Assembly: GCA_050953885.1 (NCBI GenBank)
Contig: JBMNNJ010000001.1
Coordinates: 399,437-463,436, forward strand
DNA: 64,000 nucleotides
Source: Patescibacteria group bacterium
GTDB taxonomy: Bacteria; Patescibacteriota; Microgenomatia; 0-14-0-10-38-17
Direction: 5' to 3'
Position 1 is the first letter of the stretch; each line of letters starts with the position of its first letter. The notes below the pieces were generated by a model. The model saw nothing but the letters and a program-made list of their open reading frames with translations. It did not search any database and was not told where the DNA came from. Made by a program: the position numbers and the translations under genes. Below, piece after piece: positions 46,341-64,000 of the stretch.

Positions 46341-46720
46341 AAGAACCCTACCCTCCTTCTTCTTTCCACTTCTTAATATTAAGATGTCTTAATTTACCTT
46401 TTGATATGCGGCTAAAATTCGCATGAAATTCATGTGAAAAAATACCCGCAAACTTCTGCGGTAATTACTAAAGCTATTTCTCCATTTTTAGGGCCTATCT
46501 AAAACCATCAAAATATATCAACTTTAAAAAATAGGGGACTTGACAAACATTTTATAATAGTGTACGCTTTTTATAATTCTGATAATTTATGATAATTTAA
46601 GGCTAAAATTTTATTACCGCAAAAATCATGAACAATCAAAAGGCATCAAACCAAATAGTAGACTTTCTTACTGTTTTTTTGATTTTTTTAATGAGTTTTA
46701 TTTGGCTGTTTATTTAACAT

Positions 46721-47203: not shown

Positions 47204-47215
47204 AAAGTTAAAAAA

Positions 47216-47776
47216 ATGACCAACAGAATTATTTTGCCTCACGGCAATTATCGTCAGCTTAAATCGTTCCAAACTACAACAATTATTTACGATTTCACGA
47301 TGGCTTTTTGTAATCAATACCGGTCCCTCCTGACTTACAAGAACTACGAGCAAATGATCGGTGGTGCCAGATCGGGTAAGCAAAATATCGCCGAAGGCAG
47401 TCAGGTTTCTGGCACTTCTAAAAAAACAGAGATAAAACTTACCAGCGTTGCCCGTGGGTCACTTGAAGAATTGCTTCAAGATTGCCTTGATTTTCTTCGC
47501 CAAAACAATCTTGTTTTGTGGGATAAAAACGATCCCCGGGCTATTACCATCCGCAAGATTGCTTATAAGCCTGATCGGTCTTATGAGTCCTACAAGTCCT
47601 ATCTTAAAGACCCGGAAAGCGCCGTCAACTGCCTAATTTGCTTAATTCATCAGGCTAATTTTCTTCTTGACCGTCAGCTTGAAGCTTTAGAAAAAGATTT
47701 TTTAGAAAATGGCGGCTTCACTGAAAGGCTTTATCGGGAAAGAAGCGAAGCAAGAAAAAAGCAAAAATATGACTAA
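47216..47776 (+). CDS. Four-helix-bundle protein (23S rRNA intervening-sequence protein / Avd-like family), long form
   Basis: Family motifs NIAEGS...S and ARGSLEEL in the expected spacing. The stop overlaps the start of the giant gene (ATGACTAA). Confidence 0.55.
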   Translation: MTNRIILPHGNYRQLKSFQTTTIIYDFTMAFCNQYRSLLTYKNYEQMIGGARSGKQNIAEGSQVSGTSKKTEIKLTSVARGSLEELLQDCLDFLRQNNLVLWDKNDPRAITIRKIAYKPDRSYESYKSYLKDPESAVNCLICLIHQANFLLDRQLEALEKDFLENGGFTERLYRERSEARKKQKYD

Positions 47777-50700
47777 TAGGACTAATAGGACCAATAATAG
47801 GACCAACTCAGCGGGCTTTTTAGAACCATTGCAAATTCAGGCTTACCTGAAAAGGCTTAAAAAGGAAGGGGCTTCTCCGGCCACTCTTAAACGCAAGGAG
47901 GCGGCCTTAAAAAAATTCCAAAGCTGGCAGGGAAAAGAATACGGACCAAAGTATCCCTTGCCAAAAGGCGCCCCTAAGCCCAAAAAGATAATCTCTAAGA
48001 AGGGAATTTTCCCCAAGGCTTTTCCTCCTTTTTTAAGATATTTTTCTTTCCTAATCGGTTTGGTGCTTTTGGCTAGTTTAGGCTGGGGAGTTTATAGCCA
48101 ATTTTTTGCCCAGCCGAAAGAAACCCCCTCCATGGCCTTCCCTACTAACCCGCCGCTCTTAATTTCTTTTCAGGGTCAGCTTACCGATGATGACGGCACT
48201 CCGATTAATGCCACTATTCCTGCCATTTTCCGCCTTTATAATGTGGACGAGGGTGGTACCGCTCTTTGGGAAGAGCAAAAAAATGTCTCCACCGACCAGG
48301 ACGGCATTTTCAATACTTTCTTGGGTGACACCGCCACGCTGGATCCGGCCATTTTTCGCGACAATATGAATCTTTGGCTGGCAATTGAAATCGACAACGA
48401 CGGGGAAATGGAACCCCGTCAGCAAATTGCCACCGTGGGCTATGCTTTCAATTCCCGCTATCTTCAAGGTTATGAGGCCACCACAGCAGCTACCGCTAAC
48501 ACCATACCGGTTATTAATGCCGATGGCGATTTAATTTTAGCCTCCTCCTCTCCCGCCATTGAAGCCACCTCCGGCACCTTTGGCCTTAAAGGCGAAGCGA
48601 TTACTATTCAATCAACCGGCGGCACGGGCGGCGGGGATATTTTAATTCAGCCCGATGCCGATACCCAAGGACAGGTAATTATCTACTCGGCAACTACCGC
48701 CGACAATTCTTTTACCGTTCAAAATAGCAATATCACCACTGGCTCGCTAATTTATGGCGAGGCCGGTACTAGCGCTAGCGGTTATAACCTGCTAAAACTT
48801 ACCTCCGGAAGCCTTTTAACCGATAAGTTTGTGGTTGACTATGCCGGCAACACCGACATCGCCGGCAACTTAACCGTTGACAGTTCCGGATTTTTTGGCA
48901 ATAGTGTCGGCATCGGCACCACCAGCCCCGGGGCAACCTTGGATGTTAACGGCAACTTACGAATTGGCACCCTGACAACAGGCTCCACCGATACCGTCTT
49001 AACCCACTCCAACAATATTGTCCAGCAAAGAACAATTGATCCCCGGGTTTGGGGGGAAACCTTGGTAGACGGCAGCGGTAGTGCCGGCTATGTGGCCTAC
49101 TGGCAGGATGCCAATACCCTGACGGGGGAGCAATACCTCGCCACCTCAAGAGGTGGCACCGGCGATGACACCTCCTCTACCACTGGTGTCCCCTACATTT
49201 CTTCCGGCAACTGGCAATATGAATCAAGTTTAAATGTGAGCCGGGGCGGCACTGGGTTTTCTTCTTTAGCAGCTGGCTCCCTAATCTACGGTTCCGGCTC
49301 CTCCCCAATGAACGCTTTAGCAATTGGCACTACTAACTATGTTTTAACCTCCAATGGTTCTGCTCCTAACTGGTCACTAATTAGCCAGGCAAATATCAGT
49401 CCTGATTCTCTAGACTTTGACCAATTCCAGGATACCCTAGATCTGGATACTGACTTAGTCTTAAATCAAGCCGCTTACACCTGGACGCAAAACTTTACCG
49501 GAGCAACTACTACCGGCTTAACTTACAACGCTAATGCTTTAACTTCAGGAAAAGGGGTATATGTTTCTTCTACTTCAACTGGTTTAACAGGAAACTTGGC
49601 AGAAATAAGTCTGTCGGGAAACAATGCCGCCAACACCGGTAATGTTTTAAGACTGGCCCAAACTGGCGCCTTATCAGCGGCAATTCCTTTAATGGTGACC
49701 AATCTTGGCGCCGGCGCTTCCTTCAGGGTTAACGATGAAACGGGCGACAATGACAGCACCCCCTTTATTATTGATGCTTCCGGCGCTGTGGGGGTGGGAA
49801 CAGCCATGCCAAACGCCTCGGCAATTCTTGATTTAACTTCAACCGCCAAGGGCTTTCTTGCTCCAAGAATGACTACCAGCCAAAGAGATGCTATTGTTAA
49901 CCCCGCCGCCGGCCTTTTAATCTATAACACCACCACCAATCAATATAACATGTATAACGGCACGGGCTGGACTCTTATTGGCGGCGGAGATGTTTCTTGG
50001 AGTAGCTTAATTGACCCGACAGAAAATCTCTTGCTAAACCATGGGGCCTACACCACCACCTTTACCTGGGGAGCCTCAACCGGAGCTAATAACCTCTTTA
50101 CCCTTACCGATACGGCCAACAATACCGGCACGGGCTACCTTTTAAACCTTAATACCGCCACGGGGTCAAGTCTTAAACCTTTAAGGGTGGCTTCGGCCGG
50201 AGTTGAGGCTTTGGCCATCGATGCCGCCGGCAATGTGGGGATCGGGACAACGAGCCCGGGAGAAAAGTTGGATGTAGTTGGAGCAATCCGTTCCAGTGGA
50301 GTCGATGTATCATCTTTAAATCCAGGAACAAGCACCACCGGAGGTTTATATTTAGGTGCACATATGGGACACCTTATACTTGACTTAAGAAATAATGATT
50401 CCAATGACTCAATTGCTTTCCGATATTCAGCGGCAAACAACACAGTAGTAGATACTATTGGTCTAGTTATGAAAGGCGGAACTGGCAACGTCGGCATCGG
50501 CACCACCAGCCCCGGGGCAACCTTGGATGTTAACGGCAACTTACGAATTGGCACCCTGACAACAGGCTCCACCGATACCGTCTTAACCCACTCCAACAAT
50601 ATTGTCCAGCAAAGAACAATTGATCCCCGGGTTTGGGGGGAAACCTTGGTAGACGGCAGCGGTAGTGCCGGCTATGTGGCCTACTGGCAGGATGCCAATA

Positions 50701-53700
50701 CCCTGACGGGGGAGCAATACCTCGCCACCTCAAGAGGTGGCACCGGCGATGACACCTCCTCTACCACTGGTGTCCCCTACATTTCTTCCGGCAACTGGCA
50801 ATATGAATCAAGTTTAAATGTGAGCCGGGGCGGCACTGGGTTTTCTTCTTTAGCAGCTGGCTCCCTAATCTACGGTTCCGGCTCCTCCCCAATGAACGCT
50901 TTAGCAATTGGCACTACTAACTATGTTTTAACCTCCAATGGTTCTGCTCCTAACTGGTCACTAATTAGCCAGGCAAATATCAGTCCTGATTCTCTAGACT
51001 TTGACCAATTCCAGGATACCCTAGATCTGGATACTGACTTAGTCTTAAATCAAGCCGCTTACACCTGGACGCAAAACTTTACCGGAGCAACTACTACCGG
51101 CTTAACTTACAACGCTAATGCTTTAACTTCAGGAAAAGGGGTATATGTTTCTTCTACTTCAACTGGTTTAACAGGAAACTTGGCAGAAATAAGTCTGTCG
51201 GGAAACAATGCCGCCAACACCGGTAATGTTTTAAGACTGGCCCAAACTGGCGCCTTATCAGCGGCAATTCCTTTAATGGTGACCAATCTTGGCGCCGGCG
51301 CTTCCTTCAGGGTTAACGATGAAACGGGCGACAATGACAGCACCCCCTTTATTATTGATGCTTCCGGCGCTGTGGGGGTGGGAACAGCCATGCCAAACGC
51401 CTCGGCAATTCTTGATTTAACTTCAACCGCCAAGGGCTTTCTTGCTCCAAGAATGACTACCAGCCAAAGAGATGCTATTGTTAACCCCGCCGCCGGCCTT
51501 TTAATCTATAACACCACCACCAATCAATATAACATGTATAACGGCACGGGCTGGACTCTTATTGGCGGCGGAGATGTTTCTTGGAGTAGCTTAATTGACC
51601 CGACAGAAAATCTCTTGCTAAACCATGGGGCCTACACCACCACCTTTACCTGGGGAGCCTCAACCGGAGCTAATAACCTCTTTACCCTTACCGATACGGC
51701 CAACAATACCGGCACGGGCTACCTTTTAAACCTTAATACCGCCACGGGGTCAAGTCTTAAACCTTTAAGGGTGGCTTCGGCCGGAGTTGAGGCTTTGGCC
51801 ATCGATGCCGCCGGCAATGTGGGGATCGGGACAACGAGCCCGGGAGAAAAGTTGGATGTAGTTGGAGCAATCCGTTCCAGTGGAGTCGATGTATCATCTT
51901 TAAATCCAGGAACAAGCACCACCGGAGGTTTATATTTAGGTGCACATATGGGACACCTTATACTTGACTTAAGAAATAATGATTCCAATGACTCAATTGC
52001 TTTCCGATATTCAGCGGCAAACAACACAGTAGTAGATACTATTGGTCTAGTTATGAAAGGCGGAACTGGCAACGTCGGCATCGGCACCACCAGCCCCGGG
52101 GCAACCTTGGATGTTAACGGCAACTTACGAATTGGCACCCTGACAACAGGCTCCACCGATACCGTCTTAACCCACTCCAACAATATTGTCCAGCAAAGAA
52201 CAATTGATCCCCGGGTTTGGGGGGAAACCTTGGTAGACGGCAGCGGTAGTGCCGGCTATGTGGCCTACTGGCAGGATGCCAATACCCTGACGGGGGAGCA
52301 ATACCTCGCCACCTCAAGAGGTGGCACCGGCGATGACACCTCCTCTACCACTGGTGTCCCCTACATTTCTTCCGGCAACTGGCAATATGAATCAAGTTTA
52401 AATGTGAGCCGGGGCGGCACTGGGTTTTCTTCTTTAGCAGCTGGCTCCCTAATCTACGGTTCCGGCTCCTCCCCAATGAACGCTTTAGCAATTGGCACTA
52501 CTAACTATGTTTTAACCTCCAATGGTTCTGCTCCTAACTGGTCACTAATTAGCCAGGCAAATATCAGTCCTGATTCTCTAGACTTTGACCAATTCCAGGA
52601 TACCCTAGATCTGGATACTGACTTAGTCTTAAATCAAGCCGCTTACACCTGGACGCAAAACTTTACCGGAGCAACTACTACCGGCTTAACTTACAACGCT
52701 AATGCTTTAACTTCAGGAAAAGGGGTATATGTTTCTTCTACTTCAACTGGTTTAACAGGAAACTTGGCAGAAATAAGTCTGTCGGGAAACAATGCCGCCA
52801 ACACCGGTAATGTTTTAAGACTGGCCCAAACTGGCGCCTTATCAGCGGCAATTCCTTTAATGGTGACCAATCTTGGCGCCGGCGCTTCCTTCAGGGTTAA
52901 CGATGAAACGGGCGACAATGACAGCACCCCCTTTATTATTGATGCTTCCGGCGCTGTGGGGGTGGGAACAGCCATGCCAAACGCCTCGGCAATTCTTGAT
53001 TTAACTTCAACCGCCAAGGGCTTTCTTGCTCCAAGAATGACTACCAGCCAAAGAGATGCTATTGTTAACCCCGCCGCCGGCCTTTTAATCTATAACACCA
53101 CCACCAATCAATATAACATGTATAACGGCACGGGCTGGACTCTTATTGGCGGCGGAGATGTTTCTTGGAGTAGCTTAATTGACCCGACAGAAAATCTCTT
53201 GCTAAACCATGGGGCCTACACCACCACCTTTACCTGGGGAGCCTCAACCGGAGCTAATAACCTCTTTACCCTTACCGATACGGCCAACAATACCGGCACG
53301 GGCTACCTTTTAAACCTTAATACCGCCACGGGGTCAAGTCTTAAACCTTTAAGGGTGGCTTCGGCCGGAGTTGAGGCTTTGGCCATCGATGCCGCCGGCA
53401 ATGTGGGGATCGGGACAACGAGCCCGGGAGAAAAGTTGGATGTAGTTGGAGCAATCCGTTCCAGTGGAGTCGATGTATCATCTTTAAATCCAGGAACAAG
53501 CACCACCGGAGGTTTATATTTAGGTGCACATATGGGACACCTTATACTTGACTTAAGAAATAATGATTCCAATGACTCAATTGCTTTCCGATATTCAGCG
53601 GCAAACAACACAGTAGTAGATACTATTGGTCTAGTTATGAAAGGCGGAACTGGCAACGTCGGCATCGGCACCACCAGCCCCGGGGCAACCTTGGATGTTA

Positions 53701-56700
53701 ACGGCAACTTACGAATTGGCACCCTGACAACAGGCTCCACCGATACCGTCTTAACCCACTCCAACAATATTGTCCAGCAAAGAACAATTGATCCCCGGGT
53801 TTGGGGGGAAACCTTGGTAGACGGCAGCGGTAGTGCCGGCTATGTGGCCTACTGGCAGGATGCCAATACCCTGACGGGGGAGCAATACCTCGCCACCTCA
53901 AGAGGTGGCACCGGCGATGACACCTCCTCTACCACTGGTGTCCCCTACATTTCTTCCGGCAACTGGCAATATGAATCAAGTTTAAATGTGAGCCGGGGCG
54001 GCACTGGGTTTTCTTCTTTAGCAGCTGGCTCCCTAATCTACGGTTCCGGCTCCTCCCCAATGAACGCTTTAGCAATTGGCACTACTAACTATGTTTTAAC
54101 CTCCAATGGTTCTGCTCCTAACTGGTCACTAATTAGCCAGGCAAATATCAGTCCTGATTCTCTAGACTTTGACCAATTCCAGGATACCCTAGATCTGGAT
54201 ACTGACTTAGTCTTAAATCAAGCCGCTTACACCTGGACGCAAAACTTTACCGGAGCAACTACTACCGGCTTAACTTACAACGCTAATGCTTTAACTTCAG
54301 GAAAAGGGGTATATGTTTCTTCTACTTCAACTGGTTTAACAGGAAACTTGGCAGAAATAAGTCTGTCGGGAAACAATGCCGCCAACACCGGTAATGTTTT
54401 AAGACTGGCCCAAACTGGCGCCTTATCAGCGGCAATTCCTTTAATGGTGACCAATCTTGGCGCCGGCGCTTCCTTCAGGGTTAACGATGAAACGGGCGAC
54501 AATGACAGCACCCCCTTTATTATTGATGCTTCCGGCGCTGTGGGGGTGGGAACAGCCATGCCAAACGCCTCGGCAATTCTTGATTTAACTTCAACCGCCA
54601 AGGGCTTTCTTGCTCCAAGAATGACTACCAGCCAAAGAGATGCTATTGTTAACCCCGCCGCCGGCCTTTTAATCTATAACACCACCACCAATCAATATAA
54701 CATGTATAACGGCACGGGCTGGACTCTTATTGGCGGCGGAGATGTTTCTTGGAGTAGCTTAATTGACCCGACAGAAAATCTCTTGCTAAACCATGGGGCC
54801 TACACCACCACCTTTACCTGGGGAGCCTCAACCGGAGCTAATAACCTCTTTACCCTTACCGATACGGCCAACAATACCGGCACGGGCTACCTTTTAAACC
54901 TTAATACCGCCACGGGGTCAAGTCTTAAACCTTTAAGGGTGGCTTCGGCCGGAGTTGAGGCTTTGGCCATCGATGCCGCCGGCAATGTGGGGATCGGGAC
55001 AACGAGCCCGGGAGAAAAGTTGGATGTAGTTGGAGCAATCCGTTCCAGTGGAGTCGATGTATCATCTTTAAATCCAGGAACAAGCACCACCGGAGGTTTA
55101 TATTTAGGTGCACATATGGGACACCTTATACTTGACTTAAGAAATAATGATTCCAATGACTCAATTGCTTTCCGATATTCAGCGGCAAACAACACAGTAG
55201 TAGATACTATTGGTCTAGTTATGAAAGGCGGAACTGGCAACGTCGGCATCGGCACCACCAGCCCCGGGGCAACCTTGGATGTTAACGGCAACTTACGAAT
55301 TGGCACCCTGACAACAGGCTCCACCGATACCGTCTTAACCCACTCCAACAATATTGTCCAGCAAAGAACAATTGATCCCCGGGTTTGGGGGGAAACCTTG
55401 GTAGACGGCAGCGGTAGTGCCGGCTATGTGGCCTACTGGCAGGATGCCAATACCCTGACGGGGGAGCAATACCTCGCCACCTCAAGAGGTGGCACCGGCG
55501 ATGACACCTCCTCTACCACTGGTGTCCCCTACATTTCTTCCGGCAACTGGCAATATGAATCAAGTTTAAATGTGAGCCGGGGCGGCACTGGGTTTTCTTC
55601 TTTAGCAGCTGGCTCCCTAATCTACGGTTCCGGCTCCTCCCCAATGAACGCTTTAGCAATTGGCACTACTAACTATGTTTTAACCTCCAATGGTTCTGCT
55701 CCTAACTGGTCACTAATTAGCCAGGCAAATATCAGTCCTGATTCTCTAGACTTTGACCAATTCCAGGATACCCTAGATCTGGATACTGACTTAGTCTTAA
55801 ATCAAGCCGCTTACACCTGGACGCAAAACTTTACCGGAGCAACTACTACCGGCTTAACTTACAACGCTAATGCTTTAACTTCAGGAAAAGGGGTATATGT
55901 TTCTTCTACTTCAACTGGTTTAACAGGAAACTTGGCAGAAATAAGTCTGTCGGGAAACAATGCCGCCAACACCGGTAATGTTTTAAGACTGGCCCAAACT
56001 GGCGCCTTATCAGCGGCAATTCCTTTAATGGTGACCAATCTTGGCGCCGGCGCTTCCTTCAGGGTTAACGATGAAACGGGCGACAATGACAGCACCCCCT
56101 TTATTATTGATGCTTCCGGCGCTGTGGGGGTGGGAACAGCCATGCCAAACGCCTCGGCAATTCTTGATTTAACTTCAACCGCCAAGGGCTTTCTTGCTCC
56201 AAGAATGACTACCAGCCAAAGAGATGCTATTGTTAACCCCGCCGCCGGCCTTTTAATCTATAACACCACCACCAATCAATATAACATGTATAACGGCACG
56301 GGCTGGACTCTTATTGGCGGCGGAGATGTTTCTTGGAGTAGCTTAATTGACCCGACAGAAAATCTCTTGCTAAACCATGGGGCCTACACCACCACCTTTA
56401 CCTGGGGAGCCTCAACCGGAGCTAATAACCTCTTTACCCTTACCGATACGGCCAACAATACCGGCACGGGCTACCTTTTAAACCTTAATACCGCCACGGG
56501 GTCAAGTCTTAAACCTTTAAGGGTGGCTTCGGCCGGAGTTGAGGCTTTGGCCATCGATGCCGCCGGCAATGTGGGAATTGGGACGACGAGTCCGGGGGCA
56601 AAGCTACATGTAAATGCTGGTGCAGCACAATTGACAATGGAAAGAGATGAAACCCACATTAACACATGGGATTTCAGAATCACTCAGGAGGCGGGCATCT

Positions 56701-59700
56701 CTGCAAACTCCCTATACCTGAGAGCGTCAGAAAATACAGCCGACTTTGGAATAAGGGCAGCTAATTCTGGGAACGTCCAGTTCATTTTGAAGGGCCCAAC
56801 AGGCAACGTCGGCATCGGGACGACGGCGCCGGGGGCGAAGCTTGATGTTAACGGAACGGGTAGGTTTGCCACTTCCGTGTCTTCGCCTCTTTTTCAAGGT
56901 GATACCGGGGCGGTTACCTTTGGCAATGCTTCCTATGCCACCACCATTGCCGGTTCAGGATTAACCATCTCTCCTACTGCCTGGACAGCCACTCCTACCA
57001 TATCAGGGCTTATTACCGCTACTTTAGGATTAACCGCCAATGGAGCCTTAACCGCCAACAGCACCTTCACTTTAGGAGACGGCGCTGATGCCGGTTCGGT
57101 TAATACCTCAAGTTGGGATATCTCCACCACTGGCGTCGCCTCGGGATTTACCGGCCTTACTTCCTCCGGCACGATCACCTTCTCTTCTCTGGCCGCCAAC
57201 CGACTGGTGACCACCACCACAGGAGGAGAACTAACCACCAGCGCCGAGGGGACTGTCGGCCAGCCCTTACTTTCCGGAGGGACATCCTCCCCCAACTGGG
57301 GGACTCTTGGTCTGGTTTATGGCGGTACCAATGCCGATCTTTCCGGGGTGGCCCAAGGAGGGCTAATTTACAAGGAAACTTCCGCCTTAGCCGGCACCGG
57401 GGCCTTAACGGGAATTCTTCAGGGAAATAACGCCAGCGCCCCCACCGCCATCACCGGCACCGCCAATTATCTGCCCAAATGGTCCTCAACCGCCCCTTAC
57501 CTCACCACCGCTTCCCAAATTTTCGACAGCGGCGCTAATGTCGGCATTGGCAATAGCAATCCTCAAGCCCTGCTTCATGTGGGCGCCGGCGGCACGCCCA
57601 ATTATGCTTCAAGCGGCGATGTTTATATCCAAAACGATCTCGAAGTGGACGGCACCATTTACGGCGCGCTGGATATTACCGACGCCACTTTTGACTTTTT
57701 GGAAGTTAAGCGGGCGGCCACTTTCTCCGCCCAAATCGCCTCGGATATTCCCATTACCGTTAAAAACACCGGCGGCAATGAGGTGGCGCGGTTCACCAAC
57801 GAGGGCAAGCTAAGACTTGGTTCTGCCGGCGCGCCCACCGACACTTTAGATATTGATGGCGACGCTGATATTTCCGGCAACTTGGATGTGGGCAATGGCC
57901 TTGATGTTTTAGGCGCCAACTTCACCGTCGGCGGCGCTAACTTTACCGTTAGCCAAGCCGGCACGGTGACCGGCGGCACCTACAACGGCCAAACTATTTC
58001 CTCCACTGCCAGCTTTACCGGCACTCTTAGCGTCGCTTCAACCTTCAACGCTAATAGCAATGTGGGCTTGGGAAACGAAGCCACCGACACCATCAACGCC
58101 GCCGGGCAATTTGTCTCCGGCCTTATCCCCCAAACAAACAGTTATAACCTTGGCTCCCCCACTAACCACTGGGGCGCTTTGTACGTTGATTCCATTTACG
58201 GCGGTCAGGTGGGCGAATTTGACTTTCTTAAGGCCCGGGGCGCCACCCTCTCGGCCGAAATCCCCACCGACAAAACCTTGGTTTTGGAAGGCCTTGCTTC
58301 CGGCCATACCGCCAATTTAATTGAAGCCAACGCCAACGGCGCCACCGCTCTCACCCTCTCCCCGGCCGGCAATTTAACCTTAGGAGGAACGATAACTTTA
58401 CCCAACGGTAACACCTTAACCGGCGTGGCTTCTTATATTCAATTTAACAATGGCATAAGCGTTGGCGGGGGAACCACCTATCGGCTCACCTCCACTGGCG
58501 ACGCATATCTTAATAATCTCTACACCGGCGGAACGCAAAGGCTTTCTTCAACCGGCGCCCTTGCCAACATTACCGACTACAGCCAATCCTCCGGCAATTT
58601 CGCCATTTCGGGAACTGGCACTTTCTCTACCGCCACCGGCAATATCTCCCTAAATGGAGCCACCACCGTAGCCGACGGCAAATCTTTCACCGCCAACGGG
58701 CCGGTGACCTTGGGCGACGGGGGCGATGCGGTGGCCATTAACAGCAACATTTGGGATATTACCTCGGCCGGCGTCGCTTCCGGCTTAACCCAATTAACCG
58801 TTGACAACCTCCAGCTTGACGGCAACACTCTTTCTTCAACCACGGACAACATTACTCTTGACGCCGCCGCTTACTTGGTGATTGCCGACCAAATTGCCTC
58901 AAGCTTAATTCCTTCCGCCACCAACACTTATGATTTGGGCTCCCCGGAGAACTACTGGGACGATGCTTACATCAACACTTTAACCGCTAATTCGCTAAAT
59001 TTTGATTTTATCGCCGCCCGCGGCGCCACTTTTTCGGCCGAAATCCCCACCGACAAAACCTTGGTTCTTAATGCCGCTACCGGCCAAACCGCCAATCTTT
59101 TGGAAATCAATTCCGCCCCCGGCGCCAGCGGCGACTTAATGGTGGTCACCGGCGGCGGCAATGTCGGCATTGGCAACAGCAATCCGGGAACATATAAATT
59201 AGATGTGGCGGGCACGGGAAGATTTAATTCCACCGCTAATCCGGGGTTAACGGTTGGCAACGGCGCTATTGGCTATTTAAAAATTGGCGGCTCAACTATT
59301 TATGATAACAACAGCGACTTAACTTTAGACTCCGATACTGCCTTGGTGATTTTAGCCGATGATTTGCAAATTAACGGCAATGATATTTATGATTCCGGCG
59401 CAAACCAGAGAATCAATTTGGGCGCCACCACCACTTTATACAACACCACCACCATCCTTTCGGGCACCACCGCCTTAACCGCCTCTTCCTTGGCAACCTT
59501 TACCACCGCCTCCTCTTTGGCAATGCCCGCCACCACCTCTTTAACCTTAGGCGGTTCAGCAACCATCTACGGCGGCACGACGGCTTCAGGAACACTAACT
59601 CTTCAGTCAACTTCAAACGCCACCAAAGGCAATATCCTAATTAATCCTTCTGGCGGCAATGTCGGCATCGGGACGACGGGGCCGGGGGCGAAATTATCTA

Positions 59701-62700
59701 TTAATGGCTCGCCAGCGATAGAGTTTGCTTCTTGCGGGACTTCTTACGGAGGTTGTTATATCAAGGAAGGATGGGGCCCTGAATTATATTCCAATACATC
59801 GCAACCTTTTCAAGTTTTAAATACTTCACTTTTGGTTGGATATGACCAAACAGATTCAACCGCCAGAGGAAGCGGTAATTTACTCGTAAGCGGCAATGTC
59901 GGCATCGGGACGACGGGGCCGAACACTGAACTAAGTTTAAATCACGGTTATATAAATTTTGAGCCCTCGCTAACCTCGTGGCTAAAAACTGGAGGAGAAG
60001 GAATACTTATGTGGAACTCTAATGATATTGAGTGGCTCGAATCAACATACGAGAGCGGATACGGCCACAGATTATATTCCATCGATCCTGGGGCAGGTGC
60101 AGTTACACACCTTCGGCTAGCCGCAAGAAATAACTCTGCCTCGTGGACAGATATGGTTACTTTTGTTTCTAACGGCAACGTCGGCATCGGGACGACGGGG
60201 CCACAACATAAATTACATATTTATACGACAACCGCACAAGAGGGAATAATTATTAACGCTGGCACTTATCCAGAAATCAGATTTGAAGAGGCTGGAACAG
60301 TAAGAGGCTATCTTAGCGTTGCTGGAAGCGCAGGAGGATATGGAACAGGCACATTAGCTGATTCTATGATACTTCGCGCTGAAGGTAATATGCATCTTAT
60401 TACGAATGCAGGGACTGTGGTACAAACATTAACCAGTGGCGGCAATGTGGGCATTGGGACAACAACTCCGGGGGCAAGACTGGATGTTAACGGCAATTTA
60501 AAAATCGCCACCCTGACAACCGGCGCCACCAATACGGTTTTAACCCACAGCGGCAATATTGTCCAGCAAAGAACCATTGATTCCCGAGTTTGGGGATCAG
60601 CGTTGGTTGATTATTCCGGCACCTCGGCTAACTACATTCCCAAAATGCTTGACGCCGACACGATTACCAATTCCCTAATTTACGAAGCCGCCAGCAGCCG
60701 CCGCATCGGCATTAGCACCACCAGCCCGGGTTCAAAATTAACCGTTGCCGGCGGCGCTTCCTATTTTGGCGCCCTGCCTGCCCCCACCGGAGTAGTGGCC
60801 ACTCCCACCTCGGGAGGCGGCTTAGTGGCGGGAACTTACTATTATGTGGTCAACGCCTTTGACAGCAACAACCTTTCCTCAAACAAATCAAGCCAGGTTT
60901 CCTGCACGGTTGATGGCTCTACCACCACCGCCTGCCAAATTTCCTGGGTGGCCGTTCCCGGCGCCACCAACTACCGCGTTTACGGCAGAGCCAGCAACGC
61001 CCAAAACCAATACTGGCAAACCACTTCTCTCTACTACACCGACACCGGCGCCGCCGGCGCCAGCGACACGCCGCCGGGACCAATCTCCGCTTTCTTTACC
61101 GGCAATATAAAAGCGGAACGCTTTGCGGATTCGGCTAACGACACCTACTACCTTGATCCGGCCTATGCCACTCTTTCCCTCACCACCGCCGGAGCGGCGG
61201 GCATCGGCTACTCGGCCGGCCAGATGAGCGGTGCCACCGCCAAGCTGGCCGTTGACGGCAATGTGGGAATTGGGACGACGAGTCCGGGGGCAAAGCTACA
61301 TGTAAATGCTGGTGCAGCACAATTGACAATGGAAAGAGATGAAACCCACATTAACACATGGGATTTCAGAATCACTCAGGAGGCGGGCATCTCTGCAAAC
61401 TCCCTATACCTGAGAGCGTCAGAAAATACAGCCGACTTTGGAATAAGGGCAGCTAATTCTGGGAACGTCCAGTTCATTTTGAAGGGCCCAACAGGCAACG
61501 TCGGCATCGGGACAGTTTTCGGCGAAGCAGATACTACAGGAAAATTGAACGTAAGAAAAGATAGCACAGCAGATGGAATGATTAGCGATGTTCTTACGTT
61601 GCGCAATCATTGGCATACCGTTACTAATATAGGAACTGGAATTGCATTGAGATTTAAACAAGGATCAACCAGCGAAACCGGAAAGCTTGTTGATATTGGT
61701 TCAATTGCTGAAAGTGGGTGGAGCAACGCAGTCGGTTTCTTTGTTAAGACTGGTGGTACTGAAAGGTTAAGAATAAGTAACGGCGGCAACGTCGGCATCG
61801 GGACAGCGAGTCCAAGTTACCCACTACACGTATATAAAAATGCAGGTGACTGGACGGCGCGCTTCCAAAACACTTCGGGATCCATAGATATTGGACCAGC
61901 CAATGGTAGTGGAGCCCACATTTATACAGACCTAAGCCAATTTTTCTTTAATCAACCCATTACCCTCACGGGCACCAGCAGTATTTCTTCTTATTCCACG
62001 AATAATCTCTATCTTAAAACAGGTACGCAGGCTAACACAAGGATGACAATTCTTGCTAGTAATGGCAATGTCGGCATCGGGACGACGGGGCCTGTTCAAA
62101 AATTGCATGTTGAAGGCAATTGTGTAACGGGAGATACAAAGTTAGCAATTTTTGAGGATCACAGTTCACAGTTCACAGTTCACAGCAATGCTCCTTCAGA
62201 GCAGATCACAGATCACAGATCACAGTTCACGGAAATACAAATAAAGGATATAAAATCAGGAACAAAAGTATATTCGCTAAATCAAGAAACTGGGAAACTA
62301 GAACCTGCTAGGATCAACAAACTTCTTGACATGGGAACAAAGCCTGTATTTAAATTAACTACAGAGGGTGGAAAAGAGATTCGCACCACTGGCAACCACC
62401 CATATCTTGCCCAACTATCTTATGAACAATACCAGCAAAGAGTTCAACTTCGAGAAACTGGAAGTTTGGAAGAAGAGTATGGCCTTAGTCAAGGCGATCT
62501 ATCAGTTGCTCGAGAGTTTTCCCAAACACGAGAGGTATGGTCTAGTGGATCAACTTCGCCGAGCAGCAACCTCAATTCTTCTGAATATCGCCGAGGGGAA
62601 CGGGAGGTACAGCCACAAGGAATTTATCCAATTTCTCTATCAGGCCAGGGGCAGTCTCTACGAGGTGGTGGCTTGTCTCAAACTAACTCAAGAGCTGGGT

Positions 62701-64000
62701 TACTTAACTCAGCAACAGATTACTCCTCTACTCCAACAGACTCACGAGATCAACAGGATGCTCTCGGGGCTGATCAATTATCTCAAGAAGAAAGCTGGCA
62801 AAGCCAGCTAAATCACGGTTCACCGTTCACGGATCACAGATGGGTGAAGGTGATTTATTTATCTCCAGGTGACTCTATTGCTACCGCTTCTTTCTGTGAA
62901 CCAAGAACAGTGAACGGTGAACCACGAGCCGAAGGCGAGTATAACTCCCGTGAACTACGATCTGTGAACTGTGAACCATACGTTGTTTGGGACAAAATCG
63001 TTTCCATCGAGTATGTTGGCTATGAGCAGGTCTATGACATAGAGGTTGAGGGCACGCATAACTTTGTTGCTAATGGAATTTTGGCCCATAACACGTATAT
63101 TAGCGGCAATGTCGGCATCGGGACGACGAGTCCGGGGTACAAACTAGACGTAAATGGAACACTAAACGCCACATCAATCTATGAGAACGGAACACCGCTC
63201 TCTAACAGTTATAGCAACGTTGTTTATAAATATGGGCCAACAGGTTTAAATGGAGCGGCCACTAGTGATTTTGGATTAAGAATTACTCACTCAACTGGTG
63301 ATACCAGTCACGCTGACCATGGTTCTTATTTAGTTAACATTAAAAGCAGGTACATTGATGAAACGTGGCTTTTCTACTTAGCATCTGAATATCTCGGGGC
63401 ATACAAGTATAATATAGAGCGGGTGGGTGGGCATACGAACAGCGTTACCGCAGTACTGGTAACAAATACTAGTACGAGTTTTCAATTAGAACTGCAAACA
63501 TCAGGATCACAAAATGACTGGCATAGCGTAACGGTCACTAGAGTTGGGTATTCTCAGTCCGGTAATCCAACGTTTAGTTACATTGATTCCACAGCATTTA
63601 GTGCTGGTACTACTGTTGGTAGGAAATCTTGGATTGGGAATAACAATGGTGGAACAAGTACTTACTATAGCGGCAACGTCGGCATCGGGACGACGAGTCC
63701 AGGGTATACACTACATGTTAACGGCACGGCCAATATCGGCTCTTCTTTATACGTTGCCGGCAACCAACGCTTTAATTCCTCCGGCGCTCTTATTCCCCAT
63801 ACCGTTTCTTCAACCACTAAATTTACTAACCTTAACGCCGATATGGTTGACGGTTATAGCTACTCCTCCTCTTGGCCAAATGCCTCAAATACTGTCCTGC
63901 GTTCAGGCTCCACTACAAACTACATACCAAAATGGAGCGGAACCTATACCCTAACTAATTCAATTATCTACGATAACGGCACCAATGTCGGCATCGGGAC
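47769..64000 (+). CDS. Giant tail-fibre-like repeat surface protein, more than 5,400 codons in the window and still open at the window end
   Basis: The frame of 47769 (positions divisible by 3) has no listed stop to 64000. Hand translation of several long stretches confirmed it is open. N-terminal integrase-CB-like module (IQAYLKRLKKEGASPATLKRKEAALKKFQSW), a TM anchor (FLIGLVLLASLGWGVY), then modules with the GNVGIGTTxPxxKL(D/H)VNG motif. Also LAPRMTTSQRDAIVNPAAGLLIYNTTTNQYNMYNGTGW, and an FN3 segment (YYYVVNAFDSNN...ISWVAVPGATNYRVYG). All ORF-track entries in this span are in other frames or antisense. Confidence 0.85.
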   Translation, partial: MTNRTNRTNNRTNSAGFLEPLQIQAYLKRLKKEGASPATLKRKEAALKKFQSWQGKEYGPKYPLPKGAPKPKKIISKKGIFPKAFPPFLRYFSFLIGLVLLASLGWGVYSQFFAQPKETPSMAFPTNPPLLISFQGQLTDDDGTPINATIPAIFRLYNVDEGGTALWEEQKNVSTDQDGIFNTFLGDTATLDPAIFRDNMNLWLAIEIDNDGEMEPRQQIATVGYAFNSRYLQGYEATTAATANTIPVINADGDLILASSSPAIEATSGTFGLKGEAITIQSTGGTGGGDILIQPDADTQGQVIIYSATTADNSFTVQNSNITTGSLIYGEAGTSASGYNLLKLTSGSLLTDKFVVDYAGNTDIAGNLTVDSSGFFGNSVGIGTTSPGATLDVNGNLRIGTLTTGSTDTVLTHSNNIVQQRTIDPRVWGETLVDGSGSAGYVAYWQDANTLTGEQYLATSRGGTGDDTSSTTGVPYISSGNWQYESSLNVSRGGTGFSSLAAGSLIYGSGSSPMNALAIGTTNYVLTSNGSAPNWSLISQANISPDSLDFDQFQDTLDLDTDLVLNQAAYTWTQNFTGATTTGLTYNANALTSGKGVYVSSTSTGLTGNLAEISLSGNNAANTGNVLRLAQTGALSAAIPLMVTNLGAGASFRVNDETGDNDSTPFIIDASGAVGVGTAMPNASAILDLTSTAKGFLAPRMTTSQRDAIVNPAAGLLIYNTTTNQYNMYNGTGWTLIGGGDVSWSSLIDPTENLLLNHGAYTTTFTWGASTGANNLFTLTDTANNTGTGYLLNLNTATGSSLKPLRVASAGVEALAIDAAGNVGIGTTSPGEKLDVVGAIRSSGVDVSSLNPGTSTTGGLYLGAHMGHLILDLRNNDSNDSIAFRYSAANNTVVDTIGLVMKGGTGNVGIGTTSPGATLDVNGNLRIGTLTTGSTDTVLTHSNNIVQQRTIDPRVWGETLVDGSGSAGYVAYWQDANTLTGEQYLATSRGGTGDDTSSTTGVPYISSGNWQYESSLNVSRGGTGFSSLAAGSLIYGSGSSPMNALAIGTTNYVLTSNGSAPNWSLISQANISPDSLDFDQFQDTLDLDTDLVLNQAAYTWTQNFTGATTTGLTYNANALTSGKGVYVSSTSTGLTGNLAEISLSGNNAANTGNVLRLAQTGALSAAIPLMVTNLGAGASFRVNDETGDNDSTPFIIDASGAVGVGTAMPNASAILDLTSTAKGFLAPRMTTSQRDAIVNPAAGLLIYNTTTNQYNMYNGTGWTLIGGGDVSWSSLIDPTENLLLNHGAYTTTFTWGASTGANNLFTLTDTANNTGTGYLLNLNTATGSSLKPLRVASAGVEALAIDAAGNVGIGTTSPGEKLDVVGAIRSSGVDVSSLNPGTSTTGGLYLGAHMGHLILDLRNNDSNDSIAFRYSAANNTVVDTIGLVMKGGTGNVGIGTTSPGATLDVNGNLRIGTLTTGSTDTVLTHSNNIVQQRTIDPRVWGETLVDGSGSAGYVAYWQDANTLTGEQYLATSRGGTGDDTSSTTGVPYISSGNWQYESSLNVSRGGTGFSSLAAGSLIYGSGSSPMNALAIGTTNYVLTSNGSAPNWSLISQANISPDSLDFDQFQDTLDLDTDLVLNQAAYTWTQNFTGATTTGLTYNANALTSGKGVYVSSTSTGLTGNLAEISLSGNNAANTGNVLRLAQTGALSAAIPLMVTNLGAGASFRVNDETGDNDSTPFIIDASGAVGVGTAMPNASAILDLTSTAKGFLAPRMTTSQRDAIVNPAAGLLIYNTTTNQYNMYNGTGWTLIGGGDVSWSSLIDPTENLLLNHGAYTTTFTWGASTGANNLFTLTDTANNTGTGYLLNLNTATGSSLKPLRVASAGVEALAIDAAGNVGIGTTSPGEKLDVVGAIRSSGVDVSSLNPGTSTTGGLYLGAHMGHLILDLRNNDSNDSIAFRYSAANNTVVDTIGLVMKGGTGNVGIGTTSPGATLDVNGNLRIGTLTTGSTDTVLTHSNNIVQQRTIDPRVWGETLVDGSGSAGYVAYWQDANTLTGEQYLATSRGGTGDDTSSTTGVPYISSGNWQYESSLNVSRGGTGFSSLAAGSLIYGSGSSPMNALAIGTTNYVLTSNGSAPNWSLISQANISPDSLDFDQFQDTLDLDTDLVLNQAAYTWTQNFTGATTTGLTYNANALTSGKGVYVSSTSTGLTGNLAEISLSGNNAANTGNVLRLAQTGALSAAIPLMVTNLGAGASFRVNDETGDNDSTPFIIDASGAVGVGTAMPNASAILDLTSTAKGFLAPRMTTSQRDAIVNPAAGLLIYNTTTNQYNMYNGTGWTLIGGGDVSWSSLIDPTENLLLNHGAYTTTFTWGASTGANNLFTLTDTANNTGTGYLLNLNTATGSSLKPLRVASAGVEALAIDAAGNVGIGTTSPGEKLDVVGAIRSSGVDVSSLNPGTSTTGGLYLGAHMGHLILDLRNNDSNDSIAFRYSAANNTVVDTIGLVMKGGTGNVGIGTTSPGATLDVNGNLRIGTLTTGSTDTVLTHSNNIVQQRTIDPRVWGETLVDGSGSAGYVAYWQDANTLTGEQYLATSRGGTGDDTSSTTGVPYISSGNWQYESSLNVSRGGTGFSSLAAGSLIYGSGSSPMNALAIGTTNYVLTSNGSAPNWSLISQANISPDSLDFDQFQDTLDLDTDLVLNQAAYTWTQNFTGATTTGLTYNANALTSGKGVYVSSTSTGLTGNLAEISLSGNNAANTGNVLRLAQTGALSAAIPLMVTNLGAGASFRVNDETGDNDSTPFIIDASGAVGVGTAMPNASAILDLTSTAKGFLAPRMTTSQRDAIVNPAAGLLIYNTTTNQYNMYNGTGWTLIGGGDVSWSSLIDPTENLLLNHGAYTTTFTWGASTGANNLFTLTDTANNTGTGYLLNLNTATGSSLKPLRVASAGVEALAIDAAGNVGIGTTSPGAKLHVNAGAAQLTMERDETHINTWDFRITQEAGISANSLYLRASENTADFGIRAANSGNVQFILKGPTGNVGIGTTAPGAKLDVNGTGRFATSVSSPLFQGDTGAVTFGNASYATTIAGSGLTISPTAWTATPTISGLITATLGLTANGALTANSTFTLGDGADAGSVNTSSWDISTTGVASGFTGLTSSGTITFSSLAANRLVTTTTGGELTTSAEGTVGQPLLSGGTSSPNWGTLGLVYGGTNADLSGVAQGGLIYKETSALAGTGALTGILQGNNASAPTAITGTANYLPKWSSTAPYLTTASQIFDSGANVGIGNSNPQALLHVGAGGTPNYASSGDVYIQNDLEVDGTIYGALDITDATFDFLEVKRAATFSAQIASDIPITVKNTGGNEVARFTNEGKLRLGSAGAPTDTLDIDGDADISGNLDVGNGLDVLGANFTVGGANFTVSQAGTVTGGTYNGQTISSTASFTGTLSVASTFNANSNVGLGNEATDTINAAGQFVSGLIPQTNSYNLGSPTNHWGALYVDSIYGGQVGEFDFLKARGATLSAEIPTDKTLVLEGLASGHTANLIEANANGATALTLSPAGNLTLGGTITLPNGNTLTGVASYIQFNNGISVGGGTTYRLTSTGDAYLNNLYTGGTQRLSSTGALANITDYSQSSGNFAISGTGTFSTATGNISLNGATTVADGKSFTANGPVTLGDGGDAVAINSNIWDITSAGVASGLTQLTVDNLQLDGNTLSSTTDNITLDAAAYLVIADQIASSLIPSATNTYDLGSPENYWDDAYINTLTANSLNFDFIAARGATFSAEIPTDKTLVLNAATGQTANLLEINSAPGASGDLMVVTGGGNVGIGNSNPGTYKLDVAGTGRFNSTANPGLTVGNGAIGYLKIGGSTIYDNNSDLTLDSDTALVILADDLQINGNDIYDSGANQRINLGATTTLYNTTTILSGTTALTASSLATFTTASSLAMPATTSLTLGGSATIYGGTTASGTLTLQSTSNATKGNILINPSGGNVGIGTTGPGAKLSINGSPAIEFASCGTSYGGCYIKEGWGPELYSNTSQPFQVLNTSLLVGYDQTDSTARGSGNLLVSGNVGIGTTGPNTELSLNHGYINFEPSLTSWLKTGGEGILMWNSNDIEWLESTYESGYGHRLYSIDPGAGAVTHLRLAARNNSASWTDMVTFVSNGNVGIGTTGPQHKLHIYTTTAQEGIIINAGTYPEIRFEEAGTVRGYLSVAGSAGGYGTGTLADSMILRAEGNMHLITNAGTVVQTLTSGGNVGIGTTTPGARLDVNGNLKIATLTTGATNTVLTHSGNIVQQRTIDSRVWGSALVDYSGTSANYIPKMLDADTITNSLIYEAASSRRIGISTTSPGSKLTVAGGASYFGALPAPTGVVATPTSGGGLVAGTYYYVVNAFDSNNLSSNKSSQVSCTVDGSTTTACQISWVAVPGATNYRVYGRASNAQNQYWQTTSLYYTDTGAAGASDTPPGPISAFFTGNIKAERFADSANDTYYLDPAYATLSLTTAGAAGIGYSAGQMSGATAKLAVDGNVGIGTTSPGAKLHVNAGAAQLTMERDETHINTWDFRITQEAGISANSLYLRASENTADFGIRAANSGNVQFILKGPTGNVGIGTVFGEADTTGKLNVRKDSTADGMISDVLTLRNHWHTVTNIGTGIALRFKQGSTSETGKLVDIGSIAESGWSNAVGFFVKTGGTERLRISNGGNVGIGTASPSYPLHVYKNAGDWTARFQNTSGSIDIGPANGSGAHIYTDLSQFFFNQPITLTGTSSISSYSTNNLYLKTGTQANTRMTILASNGNVGIGTTGPVQKLHVEGNCVTGDTKLAIFEDHSSQFTVHSNAPSEQITDHRSQFTEIQIKDIKSGTKVYSLNQETGKLEPARINKLLDMGTKPVFKLTTEGGKEIRTTGNHPYLAQLSYEQYQQRVQLRETGSLEEEYGLSQGDLSVAREFSQTREVWSSGSTSPSSNLNSSEYRRGEREVQPQGIYPISLSGQGQSLRGGGLSQTNSRAGLLNSATDYSSTPTDSRDQQDALGADQLSQEESWQSQLNHGSPFTDHRWVKVIYLSPGDSIATASFCEPRTVNGEPRAEGEYNSRELRSVNCEPYVVWDKIVSIEYVGYEQVYDIEVEGTHNFVANGILAHNTYISGNVGIGTTSPGYKLDVNGTLNATSIYENGTPLSNSYSNVVYKYGPTGLNGAATSDFGLRITHSTGDTSHADHGSYLVNIKSRYIDETWLFYLASEYLGAYKYNIERVGGHTNSVTAVLVTNTSTSFQLELQTSGSQNDWHSVTVTRVGYSQSGNPTFSYIDSTAFSAGTTVGRKSWIGNNNGGTSTYYSGNVGIGTTSPGYTLHVNGTANIGSSLYVAGNQRFNSSGALIPHTVSSTTKFTNLNADMVDGYSYSSSWPNASNTVLRSGSTTNYIPKWSGTYTLTNSIIYDNGTNVGIG
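48906..56575 (+). repeat. Perfect tandem array of five 1,584-bp coding units (528 aa each; the fifth is ~0.84 of a unit) inside the giant gene
   Basis: Unit starts at 48906, 50490, 52074, 53658 and 55242. The ORF-track antisense ORFs recur with an exact 1,584-bp period and identical sequences. Sequence diverges at about 56575. Confidence 0.9.
56558..56820 (+). repeat. Copy 1 of an exact ~252-bp duplication inside the giant gene. Copy 2 is at 61255-61507.
   Basis: By eye, identical from ggcaatgtgggaattgggacgacgagtccgggggcaaagctacatg ... to ggcaacgtcggcatcggga in both places. Confidence 0.85.
62157..62990 (+). repeat. Heptamer (TTCACAG/CTGTGAA) direct and inverted repeat blocks that bracket the intein interior and the nested four-helix-bundle ORF
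   Basis: Left block 62157-62231 (cacagttcacagttcacagttcacag...cacagatcacagatcacagttcacgg). Right blocks 62811-62843 (direct), 62893-62923 and 62949-62978 (inverted: ctgtgaactgtgaacc). These allow a long-range stem L/R3 and a local hairpin R1/R2. Confidence 0.7.
62422..62811 (+). CDS. Four-helix-bundle protein (23S rRNA intervening-sequence protein / Avd-like family) encoded in the +1 frame inside the intein
   Basis: The ORF-track ORF 62368..62811 contains a near-canonical family sequence: [83 protein letters not shown]. The likely start is MNNTSKEF at 62422. It sits where an intein homing endonuclease would be. Confidence 0.8.
   Translation: [129 protein letters not shown]

Follow-up and report, generated by a model that had tools for sequence, protein, structure and literature searches.

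We analyzed a 64,000-nucleotide stretch of DNA (the window; positions 399,437 to 463,436 of contig JBMNNJ010000001.1) from a Patescibacteria group bacterium, in which a giant open reading frame (ORF) contains an intein and the intein-coding DNA in turn holds, in the +1 frame, a predicted gene for a four-helix-bundle (4HB) protein of the 23S rRNA intervening-sequence (IVS) family. An initial annotation, made from the letters alone, had described this gene as overprinted between intein blocks B and F, where a homing endonuclease would normally sit. About 100 related loci (numbered below with the prefix L) were gathered by scanning metagenomes with the host-frame intein as query and genomes with an alignment of inteins, and nearly all of the closest relatives of the nested feature are in metagenome-assembled genomes (MAGs) of Patescibacteria, the candidate phyla radiation (CPR). 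The features on which the argument rests are the following.

47706–63998, forward strand: host giant ORF of more than 5431 codons, running past the end of the window, with 23 'GNVGIG' motifs and one intein
62121–63092, forward strand: intein, 324 residues in the host frame (PF14890, E = 3.6e-22; TIGR01445; TIGR01443; all above cut-offs)
62385–62408, forward strand: intein block B (TTGNHPYL), from sequence and alignments
62412–62840, forward strand: insert at site 2 of the intein, 429 nucleotides or 143 host codons, delimited by alignment with the empty inteins L032 (386–781) and L064 (1996–2436)
62422–62811, forward strand, +1 frame relative to the host: predicted 4HB gene (23S rRNA IVS protein/TIGR02436), 129 residues, from profiles, homologues and a model
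62841–62885, forward strand: intein block N4 strand (WVKVIYLSPGDSIAT), from alignments that include a DnaB mini-intein
62979–63092, forward strand: intein blocks F and G, from the TIGR match and alignments
63093–63095, forward strand: +1 extein nucleophile Thr, read from the sequence

In the host frame the intein follows KLHVEGN, begins with CVTGDTKL and continues through TTGNHPYL and WVKVIYLSPGDSIA to blocks F and G. It has blocks A, B, F and G, Cys1, the T-x-x-H motif, a penultimate His, a terminal Asn and a +1 Thr, the features of a class 1 intein with the HINT fold. Residues T89–Y95 (block B), D306 (block F) and A322-H323-N324 (terminal) are invariant in a 72-sequence alignment, and C1 is invariant in alignments of 11 and 7 inteins. 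With its variable loops removed, the intein matches the DnaB mini-inteins 4O1R (E = 4.5e-26) and 1MI8 (E = 1.8e-17). Profile searches gave no match to a homing-endonuclease family in the host-frame product of the window and found such a domain in none of 72 family inteins of at least 200 residues; no in-frame LAGLIDADG, HNH or GIY-YIG domain lies between N4 and block F, as one does in homing-endonuclease inteins. Judged by its sequence, the element at 62121–63092 is a DnaB-type intein with all catalytic residues, and these intact residues, together with the maintained open host frame, suggest that it is splicing-competent.

The +1-frame product was assigned by profiles well above their cut-offs, as the initial annotation had proposed, to PF05635 (23S_rRNA_IVP, 139.9 bits against a cut-off of 33.8, E = 4e-41) and TIGR02436 (136.2 bits, cut-off 24). 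Homologues also favor the start that it had named (MNNTSKEF), ATG 62422, over the upstream in-frame GTG at 62368. A phmmer search matched the product to XCC0516 (2GSC) with E = 1.6e-22, and an AlphaFold2 model built from a 58-sequence alignment has four long helices with a mean predicted local distance difference test (pLDDT) score of 94.7. In Foldseek comparisons the model superimposed on 2GSC with TM scores of 0.86/0.95, a root mean square deviation of 1.0 Å and 43% identity, and on BT_0352 (2RLD) with a TM score of 0.74. The 2GSC and 2RLD entries each contain five chains of the same sequence, and XCC0516 has been reported as a homopentamer. The family is large and widespread (268 matches at E ≤ 1e-10), and an exact-protein look-up of the window product returned no record. 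From profiles and model, the product of 62422–62811 is thus predicted to be an intact 23S-rRNA-IVS-type 4HB protein. Identity with the accessory protein Avd of diversity-generating retroelements (DGRs) was considered and rejected because the Avd model NF033474 scored 40.9 bits against a cut-off of 80 and no YxDD reverse transcriptase (RT) motif occurs in any window ORF of at least 200 residues. PADLOC gave no match.

The insert at site 2 consists of a 10-nucleotide leader, the 390-nucleotide 4HB ORF and a 29-nucleotide repeat array, and stands in place of a three-residue turn of the empty mini-inteins (HPYLT-PDG/KNG-W.KVIYL). Four relatives (L004, L005, L007 and L008) have no spare DNA at all; there the 4HB stop codon TAA is formed by the host GTA-ATT (V-I) of the strand W.KVIYL. 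The canonical endonuclease or linker site, which we take from the Ssp DnaB deletion boundaries to lie after 'GDSIA', holds only heptamer arrays in the window. By alignment to the Ssp DnaB mini-intein, the 4HB gene falls about 20 codons upstream of this position, within the beta-turn that connects block B to N4. The gene is therefore located between blocks B and F, as first described, but not at the endonuclease position. In two further inteins (L017 and L081) the 4HB gene occupies the first beta-turn instead, again in +1 phase and with the host frame open.

In the ORF scan of the window no stop codon interrupts the host frame from 47706 to 63998, and across the insert this frame encodes a 143-residue peptide rich in S, Q, G, E and R (20% hydrophobic), in line with the low-complexity sequence noted in the initial annotation. 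Its companion claim, that two such frames are unlikely by chance, was put to a permutation of synonymous codons: the permuted 4HB ORF averaged 7.9 host-frame stops, against 0 observed, and an open host frame arose in 0 of 5000 permutations. For 11 other intein-borne copies 0–0.13% of permutations were open, so that P ≤ 0.0013 in all 12 copies tested. Host-frame stops were absent from 14 of 14 intein-borne copies and numbered 10–17 in six free-standing relatives, whereas the third frame held 7–18 stops in every copy, intein-borne or free-standing. Chance is excluded as the source of the double open frame. One intended free-standing control, L002, was discarded; its contig is chimeric or recombinant and its second half is another intein-borne copy.

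These counts bear on the possibility, also raised at the outset, that the host frame is truly broken by artefact or as a fractured gene, with a free-standing 4HB gene between split-intein halves. Free-standing genes between such halves are known (PMC2677866), and the junction of the chimeric or recombinant L002 contig, at 1.2x coverage, falls within its 4HB gene. The window and 13 further assemblies from different projects, however, share an uninterrupted host frame, codon choice is biased specifically against host-frame stops, and in four lineages the 4HB stop overlaps conserved intein codons, which leaves no room for a separate C-intein start. We regard a broken host frame as extremely improbable.

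Substitution patterns separate the two frames. Between the window and L001 (Candidatus Roizmanbacteria, 79% amino acid identity) there are 18, 16 and 45 differences at the first, second and third 4HB codon positions, and between L007 and L008 there are 1, 0 and 9. By the Nei-Gojobori method dN/dS was 0.03–0.20 in the 4HB frame (0.16 for the window against L001) and 1.3–1.9 in the host frame. The 4HB frame is thereby shown to be under purifying selection, and the host-frame peptide to be unconstrained as a protein apart from the avoidance of stops; the 4HB product is therefore the conserved protein and the host frame is merely held open. Such a stop-free yet unconstrained frame is the signature to be expected if ribosomes must cross the insert to reach N4, F, G and the rest of the giant protein and if splicing then removes the filler together with the intein. 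Stop avoidance, the dN/dS contrast and the family match all favor the first of the two options in the initial annotation, a selfish passenger whose host frame has been selected to stay open. Its word 'overprinted', taken as de novo origin, does not hold: in a de novo overprinted gene the younger frame has no homologues outside, whereas here the +1-frame family is widespread and the novel product is the host-frame peptide. The 4HB gene, as its sequence relationships indicate, arrived by insertion of a pre-existing gene.

Is the 4HB gene expressed? The initial annotation had suggested looking for an internal promoter and ribosome-binding site upstream of 62422, and neither was found. The window ATG lacks a Shine-Dalgarno (SD) sequence, and a sigma-70 and terminator scan returned no forward-strand promoter upstream of the gene. 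One candidate, read by eye, was missed by that scan and is not relied on because it is absent from relatives; the terminator scan returned a second element, over the 4HB stop codon.

62326–62354, forward strand: promoter-like TTGACA-17 nt-TTTAAA in intein codons (LLDMGTKPVFKL), 68 nucleotides upstream of the 4HB ATG
62793–62809, no strand assigned: 17-nucleotide palindrome AGCTGGCAAAGCCAGCT over the 4HB stop codon, terminator-like on the reverse strand

The missing SD sequence and conserved promoter would suit a silent relic, an ORF that is unexpressed and intact by inertia, with only host read-through of any consequence. The Coxiella S23p ORF is undergoing decay, with its protein probably not produced in vivo (PMC4990558), and clear decay products occur in sister inteins (L027, L006, L015 and others). 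Against this stand the dN/dS values of 0.03–0.20, obtained from pairs saturated at synonymous sites, which with the third-position bias amount to continuing protein-level selection; the ORF is also intact in 14 copies, with 46–81% pairwise identity among nine representatives, and a canonical GGAGG(G)-type site precedes the 4HB ATG in L033 and L017. We judge a silent relic improbable. Expression by programmed +1 frameshifting, as a fusion of N-extein, N-terminal intein part and 4HB protein, would also dispense with an SD sequence, and the +1 frame is open from 62359, 63 nucleotides before the ATG. We recognized no slippery or shift-prone motif, however; homologues start at an equivalent Met or Val, a stop closes the +1 frame just upstream in every locus, and the fusion would be a truncated giant protein of more than 4900 residues, all of which makes this route very unlikely. 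Gene callers take either the giant gene or the 4HB gene and never both (on the 2.8-kb contig of L001 only the 4HB gene is annotated), and nested cargo is therefore systematically missed.

A search of other genomes for inteins with nested 4HB ORFs, as the initial annotation had advised, was productive. Intact nested copies were found in 14 inteins (the window, L001, L004, L005, L007, L008, L017, L025, L026, L028, L030, L033, L038 and L081), all in +1 phase and all with 0 host-frame stops. Identity of the intein core correlated with that of the 4HB protein (r = 0.55), which fits mostly vertical co-inheritance. L028 and L030, both in one MAG, are 98.4% identical over the element only, with unrelated flanks, and the identity of L007 and L008 (96.5%) is likewise confined to the element; by sequence, the intein and 4HB gene can apparently spread as a unit. 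Decay was also evident. In L027 the 4HB protein is truncated after 44 residues with the host frame still open, and '..NFPK..YG..' remnants with stops persist in L006, L009, L010, L014, L015, L053 and site 2 of L017. This decay series indicates that the host frame is indispensable and the 4HB gene dispensable in the long run. At site 2 of L006, L010, L014, L015 and L053 the host frame, which reads HLTE[ED]YEFS.x[KR].IW, is better conserved than the +1 frame across the old 'NFPK..YG', a pattern that may reflect exaptation or the constraint of an antisense small ORF.

Recent copying of intein and 4HB gene to new sites, in a family where none of 72 inteins has a homing endonuclease, raises the possibility that the 4HB protein is a functional partner, either a mobility or maintenance factor that replaces the endonuclease or an addiction-type factor, and that it might bind the arrays described below. 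The 4HB genes recur in two different intein turns, always in +1 phase, arrays and 4HB genes co-occur, DUF433/DUF5615, ParE and PemK genes occupy the same niche in sister inteins, and Avd, which resembles the 4HB protein in structure, binds nucleic acids as an accessory factor of a mobile retroelement. On the other side, PF05635 has no known biochemical function and PADLOC gave no match, recombination between the repeated GNVGIGTT flanks can explain the spread, inteins with a decayed 4HB gene persist, and the window gene has 23 candidate sites and one intein. A partner role, although compatible with the passenger reading, is in our estimate rather unlikely.

The cargo of sister inteins is varied. 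All 72 inteins of at least 200 residues match the splicing domain, and nine carry an in-frame NYN domain (PIN-like nuclease; best E = 1.2e-23), which could be an unrecognized intein-associated nuclease. A Pfam scan of 124 nested alternative-frame ORFs of at least 80 residues gave 11 matches to 23S_rRNA_IVP, 10 to DUF433, 9 to DUF5615, 5 to ParE and 1 each to PemK and PIN_10. Where orientation was examined (L017–L020), the toxin-antitoxin (TA)-type genes lay on the antisense strand, either as paired DUF433 and DUF5615 (PIN-like) genes or as a partnered ParE-like toxin (L018 226–838, L019 3310–3900, L020 3640–4017, L017 3334–3893), and the host frame is open through the antisense DUF433 plus DUF5615 and ParE-like cargo. 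In four of six TA-type genes the antisense frame is codon-aligned with the host, so that only TTA, CTA and TCA must be avoided; because the permutation test gives P = 1 by construction for such cargo, a codon-usage estimate was used, with P = 0.02–0.1 per gene. The other two are in a different phase, and in 24–30% of their synonymous permutations no host-frame stop arises. Among the family inteins only the sequence family L010/L011/L037 lacks an open host frame. The presence of other selfish genes in sister inteins makes the phenomenon broader than the 4HB case, and the antisense TA modules suggest that it is widespread.

Further elements were observed in these inteins. L001 has a second inserted element of about 230 nucleotides after the 4HB gene (~820–1050), across which the host frame is open and which in L027 replaces most of the 4HB gene; on its minus strand (L027 3198–3265 and 3661–3732) are a tmRNA-like match of 26 bits (E = 1.7e-7) and a tRNA-like match of 23.7 bits, both below the gathering threshold. 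Rfam searches gave nothing at the gathering threshold in L001–L003 and only these sub-threshold tRNA/tmRNA-like matches in L027, and ARAGORN found no tRNA in L001–L003. Antisense small ORFs (minus strand; L006 3122–3343, L012 3342–3590, L015 3012–3245, L020 3285–3599) encode products resembling two transmembrane helices with a common '...A[AG]W...VTPNF...' motif and no Pfam match. Two or three inteins, each with different cargo, lie at different repeat motifs in L012, L017, L034, L064 and L071, and L025 and L032 share one contig.

The 4HB gene in the window is flanked by tandem heptamer arrays, three direct and two in reverse orientation.

62157–62185, forward strand: array A1, four copies of (A/T)TCACAG, in the intein's first beta-turn (site 1)
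62204–62232, forward strand: array A2, ATCACAG x3 plus TTCACGG, at site 1, paired with A5 in the predicted RNA fold
62812–62839, forward strand: array A3, abutting the 4HB stop codon, paired with A4
62896–62924, reverse strand: array A4, degenerate and in reverse orientation, occupying the canonical endonuclease site (site 3)
62950–62978, reverse strand: array A5, in reverse orientation, at site 3, complementary to A1 and A2

Matches to (A/T)TCAC(A/C/G)G numbered 11 in the 64-kb window against 0.06 expected, all of them within the intein. The inverted pairs (A1 and A2 with A4 and A5; A3 with A4) are 79–100% complementary. The predicted fold of 62140–63000 had a minimum free energy (MFE) of −260.8 kcal/mol against −219 ± 8 kcal/mol for shuffles (z = −5.3), the A2:A5 and A3:A4 stems are present in both MFE and centroid folds, and the loop 1:loop 3 duplex of the window reached −72.7 kcal/mol against −32.8 kcal/mol for shuffles. 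Other lineages have other repeat units (GTTCAAA, GGTTCAG, GACCATA/GACGATA, AGGGTCA), and loop 1:loop 3 complementarity is kept across these lineage-specific units (z ≤ −4.7 in eight loci). Strong array complementarity went with an intact 4HB gene (Fisher p = 0.003–0.008, a statistic that ignores kinship). A perfect reverse array would place TGA in every frame, and A4 and A5 deviate exactly at those codons.

The arrays could be neutral, microsatellite-like filler of unconstrained intein turns whose complementarity has no function. They are restricted to surface turns, their copy number differs between close relatives (L028/L030 and L007/L008) and some inteins have none. Yet forward and reverse arrays share one unit within a lineage and differ between lineages, reverse arrays keep pairing while dodging the forced TGA codons, arrays are associated with the 4HB gene, and a like architecture is found in rRNA IVSs and around the free-standing 4HB genes of L003, L075 and L096, which have inverted repeats on both sides. 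Neutrality is a real possibility, if one that we think doubtful. In the predicted fold the window 4HB ORF is enclosed by terminal inverted repeats in a long stem, as in an IVS; its location is a protein-coding intein and not an rRNA helix. Because the Coxiella IVS and the free-standing 4HB genes share the inverted-repeat architecture, the cargo may be read, by analogy, as an IVS-type cassette that colonized an intein rather than an rRNA IVS itself.

A second inverted repeat was seen in relatives, between the region before block F and the 3' splice junction, where pairing exceeded the synonymous expectation in several loci; in the window it did not (z = −0.9), and the repeat is therefore left out of the feature described here. 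The codons before block F ('YVVWDKI') were complementary to the 3' splice-junction region with p ≤ 0.01 in 7 of 32 loci by synonymous resampling, those listed being L007 (3767–3790/3880–3903), L008 (862–877/983–998), L004, L005, L025 and L028. The C-exteins of L007 and L008 have six added codons ('ATTTIM'), whose complementarity to the intein is 16/16.

Taken together, these data make it likely, in our assessment, that the locus is a nested selfish element of three layers, in which a giant gene carries an endonuclease-free DnaB-type intein and the intein an out-of-frame 4HB gene. Ribosomes on the giant ORF would read straight through the insert, yielding a 143-residue S/Q/G-rich filler loop that protein splicing would remove along with the intein; the host protein would be unharmed because the filler is discarded with it. 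The intein would thus be a safe harbor for the 4HB gene, as an rRNA helix is for an IVS, and the 4HB protein would be made separately from its own ATG at 62422. With lower confidence, the A2:A5 and A3:A4 inverted repeats would enclose the 4HB ORF in a stem-loop, and some of the host transcripts could then yield a 4HB mRNA through RNase III-type processing or stabilization. Intein and cargo would be inherited jointly and copied jointly to new 'GNVGIGTT' sites. A wider proposal is that endonuclease-free inteins of giant Patescibacterial proteins form a hitherto unrecognized safe-harbor niche for independently expressed selfish genes (4HB/IVS, DUF433-DUF5615, ParE and PemK, out-of-frame or antisense) to which codon choice has adapted, and that the 4HB pentamer and the inverted arrays act as a unit, an RNA or DNA stem that is recognized or processed so that the cargo is expressed, and that this unit aids retention or copying of the intein in place of a homing endonuclease; as a whole we put this forward tentatively, as more likely to fail in some part than to stand.

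Several points weigh against the three-layer reading and its mechanism. The 14 copies are phylogenetically related and so are not 14 independent events, and the initial stop-free entry of a 390-nucleotide gene is hard to account for, since a random insertion, with 6–8 stops expected, would be open in about 1 of 1000 cases. The window ATG has no SD sequence and relatives share no promoter, and the Coxiella homologue is apparently untranslated in vivo (PMC4990558). Splicing competence was read from residues alone, the single-sequence model of the intein being uninformative (pLDDT 35). Strong complementarity also occurs in inteins with 4HB remnants only (L006 and L053), and array pairing is weak in the 4HB-bearing inteins L004, L005 and L038. 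A role for the stem is speculative because the host mRNA would not survive cutting by RNase III and the stem would be melted by translating ribosomes.

The genes around the giant ORF encode leucyl- and arginyl-tRNA synthetases, topoisomerase I and O-antigen ligase, which identifies the DNA as chromosomal. No Pfam domain was found in the parts of its exteins that were tested. At least five tandem copies of a 1584-nucleotide unit lie at 50121–56517, with 30-nucleotide repeats recurring at 50121, 51705, 53289, 54873 and 56457, and identical 178-residue antisense open frames share this spacing. Just upstream of the giant ORF are an ORF with a phage-integrase SAM-like N-terminal domain alone (46718–47200) and a second, weakly 4HB-like ORF (47204–47773; PF05635 E = 9e-6, below the cut-off) that overlaps its start; the N terminus of the giant ORF has faint SAM-like similarity as well, and L017 likewise has a 4HB gene directly upstream of its giant ORF. 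The G+C content is about 0.50 over 47706–62120 overall and about 0.45 from ~61300 through the intein and the following extein, a shift that may be a recombination boundary.

Inteins are textbook selfish elements with one kind of passenger, the in-frame homing endonuclease. In the window the passenger gene belongs to another class and uses a different reading frame, and the DNA shows the marks of simultaneous selection on both frames. It is a natural, conserved bacterial case of a long (390-nucleotide) same-strand gene overlap with a clear evolutionary logic, connects the 23S-rRNA-IVS proteins with a second type of host element that removes itself, and offers a tractable system for the function of that family. 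The general strategy to which it points is to live where the host can excise you. Nested selfish elements are known as a kind, and the presence of a 4HB gene in an intein is well supported at the level of sequence. In the literature searched we found no report of an intein with a 4HB gene, or with any out-of-frame or antisense gene, which agrees with the initial annotation, an absence that is not thereby proven.

Homing-endonuclease inteins such as Ssp DnaB and Mtu RecA likewise accommodate a second selfish gene within a surface loop of a HINT splicing domain. The window cargo, by contrast, is no endonuclease, is out of frame with the host, forms no part of the intein polypeptide and lies in the block B/N4 turn, whereas theirs lies after N4. 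Yang, Meng and Liu reportedly described in 2004 a Trichodesmium DnaB intein harboring large tandem repeats, which resembles the window element in being DnaB-type with a non-splicing region filled with in-frame tandem repeats; to our knowledge neither an out-of-frame nested gene nor an inverted layout of the repeats was described for it. In fractured genes a free-standing endonuclease gene lies between split-intein halves (Dassa et al. 2009, PMC2677866). These have in common with the window an independently translated gene inside intein-coding DNA (translation of the 4HB gene being presumed), but there the host ORF is broken and trans-splicing rejoins its products, whereas here it is continuous, as in the 13 related loci, and the overlapping cargo is a 4HB gene and not an endonuclease. 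DGR Avd shares the 4HB fold (TM score of 0.74 to 4DWL, with a weak bAvd Pfam match), but identity is 13–14%, the Avd model falls below its cut-off and the large window ORFs have no RT motif. In architecture the window element is like an rRNA IVS. In the 23S rRNA IVS of Coxiella, terminal inverted repeats form a stem that RNase III cuts; its loop contains the S23p ORF, and tandem heptamers lie upstream (PMC4990558). ORFs for 23S_rRNA_IVP are also found in CPR rRNA insertions (PMC11270868). The IVSs of Coxiella, Leptospira and CPR have in common with the window element the protein family, an ORF in an inverted-repeat stem-loop and tandem heptamers, and both kinds reside in a host element that tolerates the insertion and keeps its function, presumably so in the intein. 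The host of the window element differs in being a protein-coding intein and not an rRNA helix, with repeat arms interleaved with intein-coding segments, and the element would be removed by protein splicing after read-through, which imposes a stop-free host frame.

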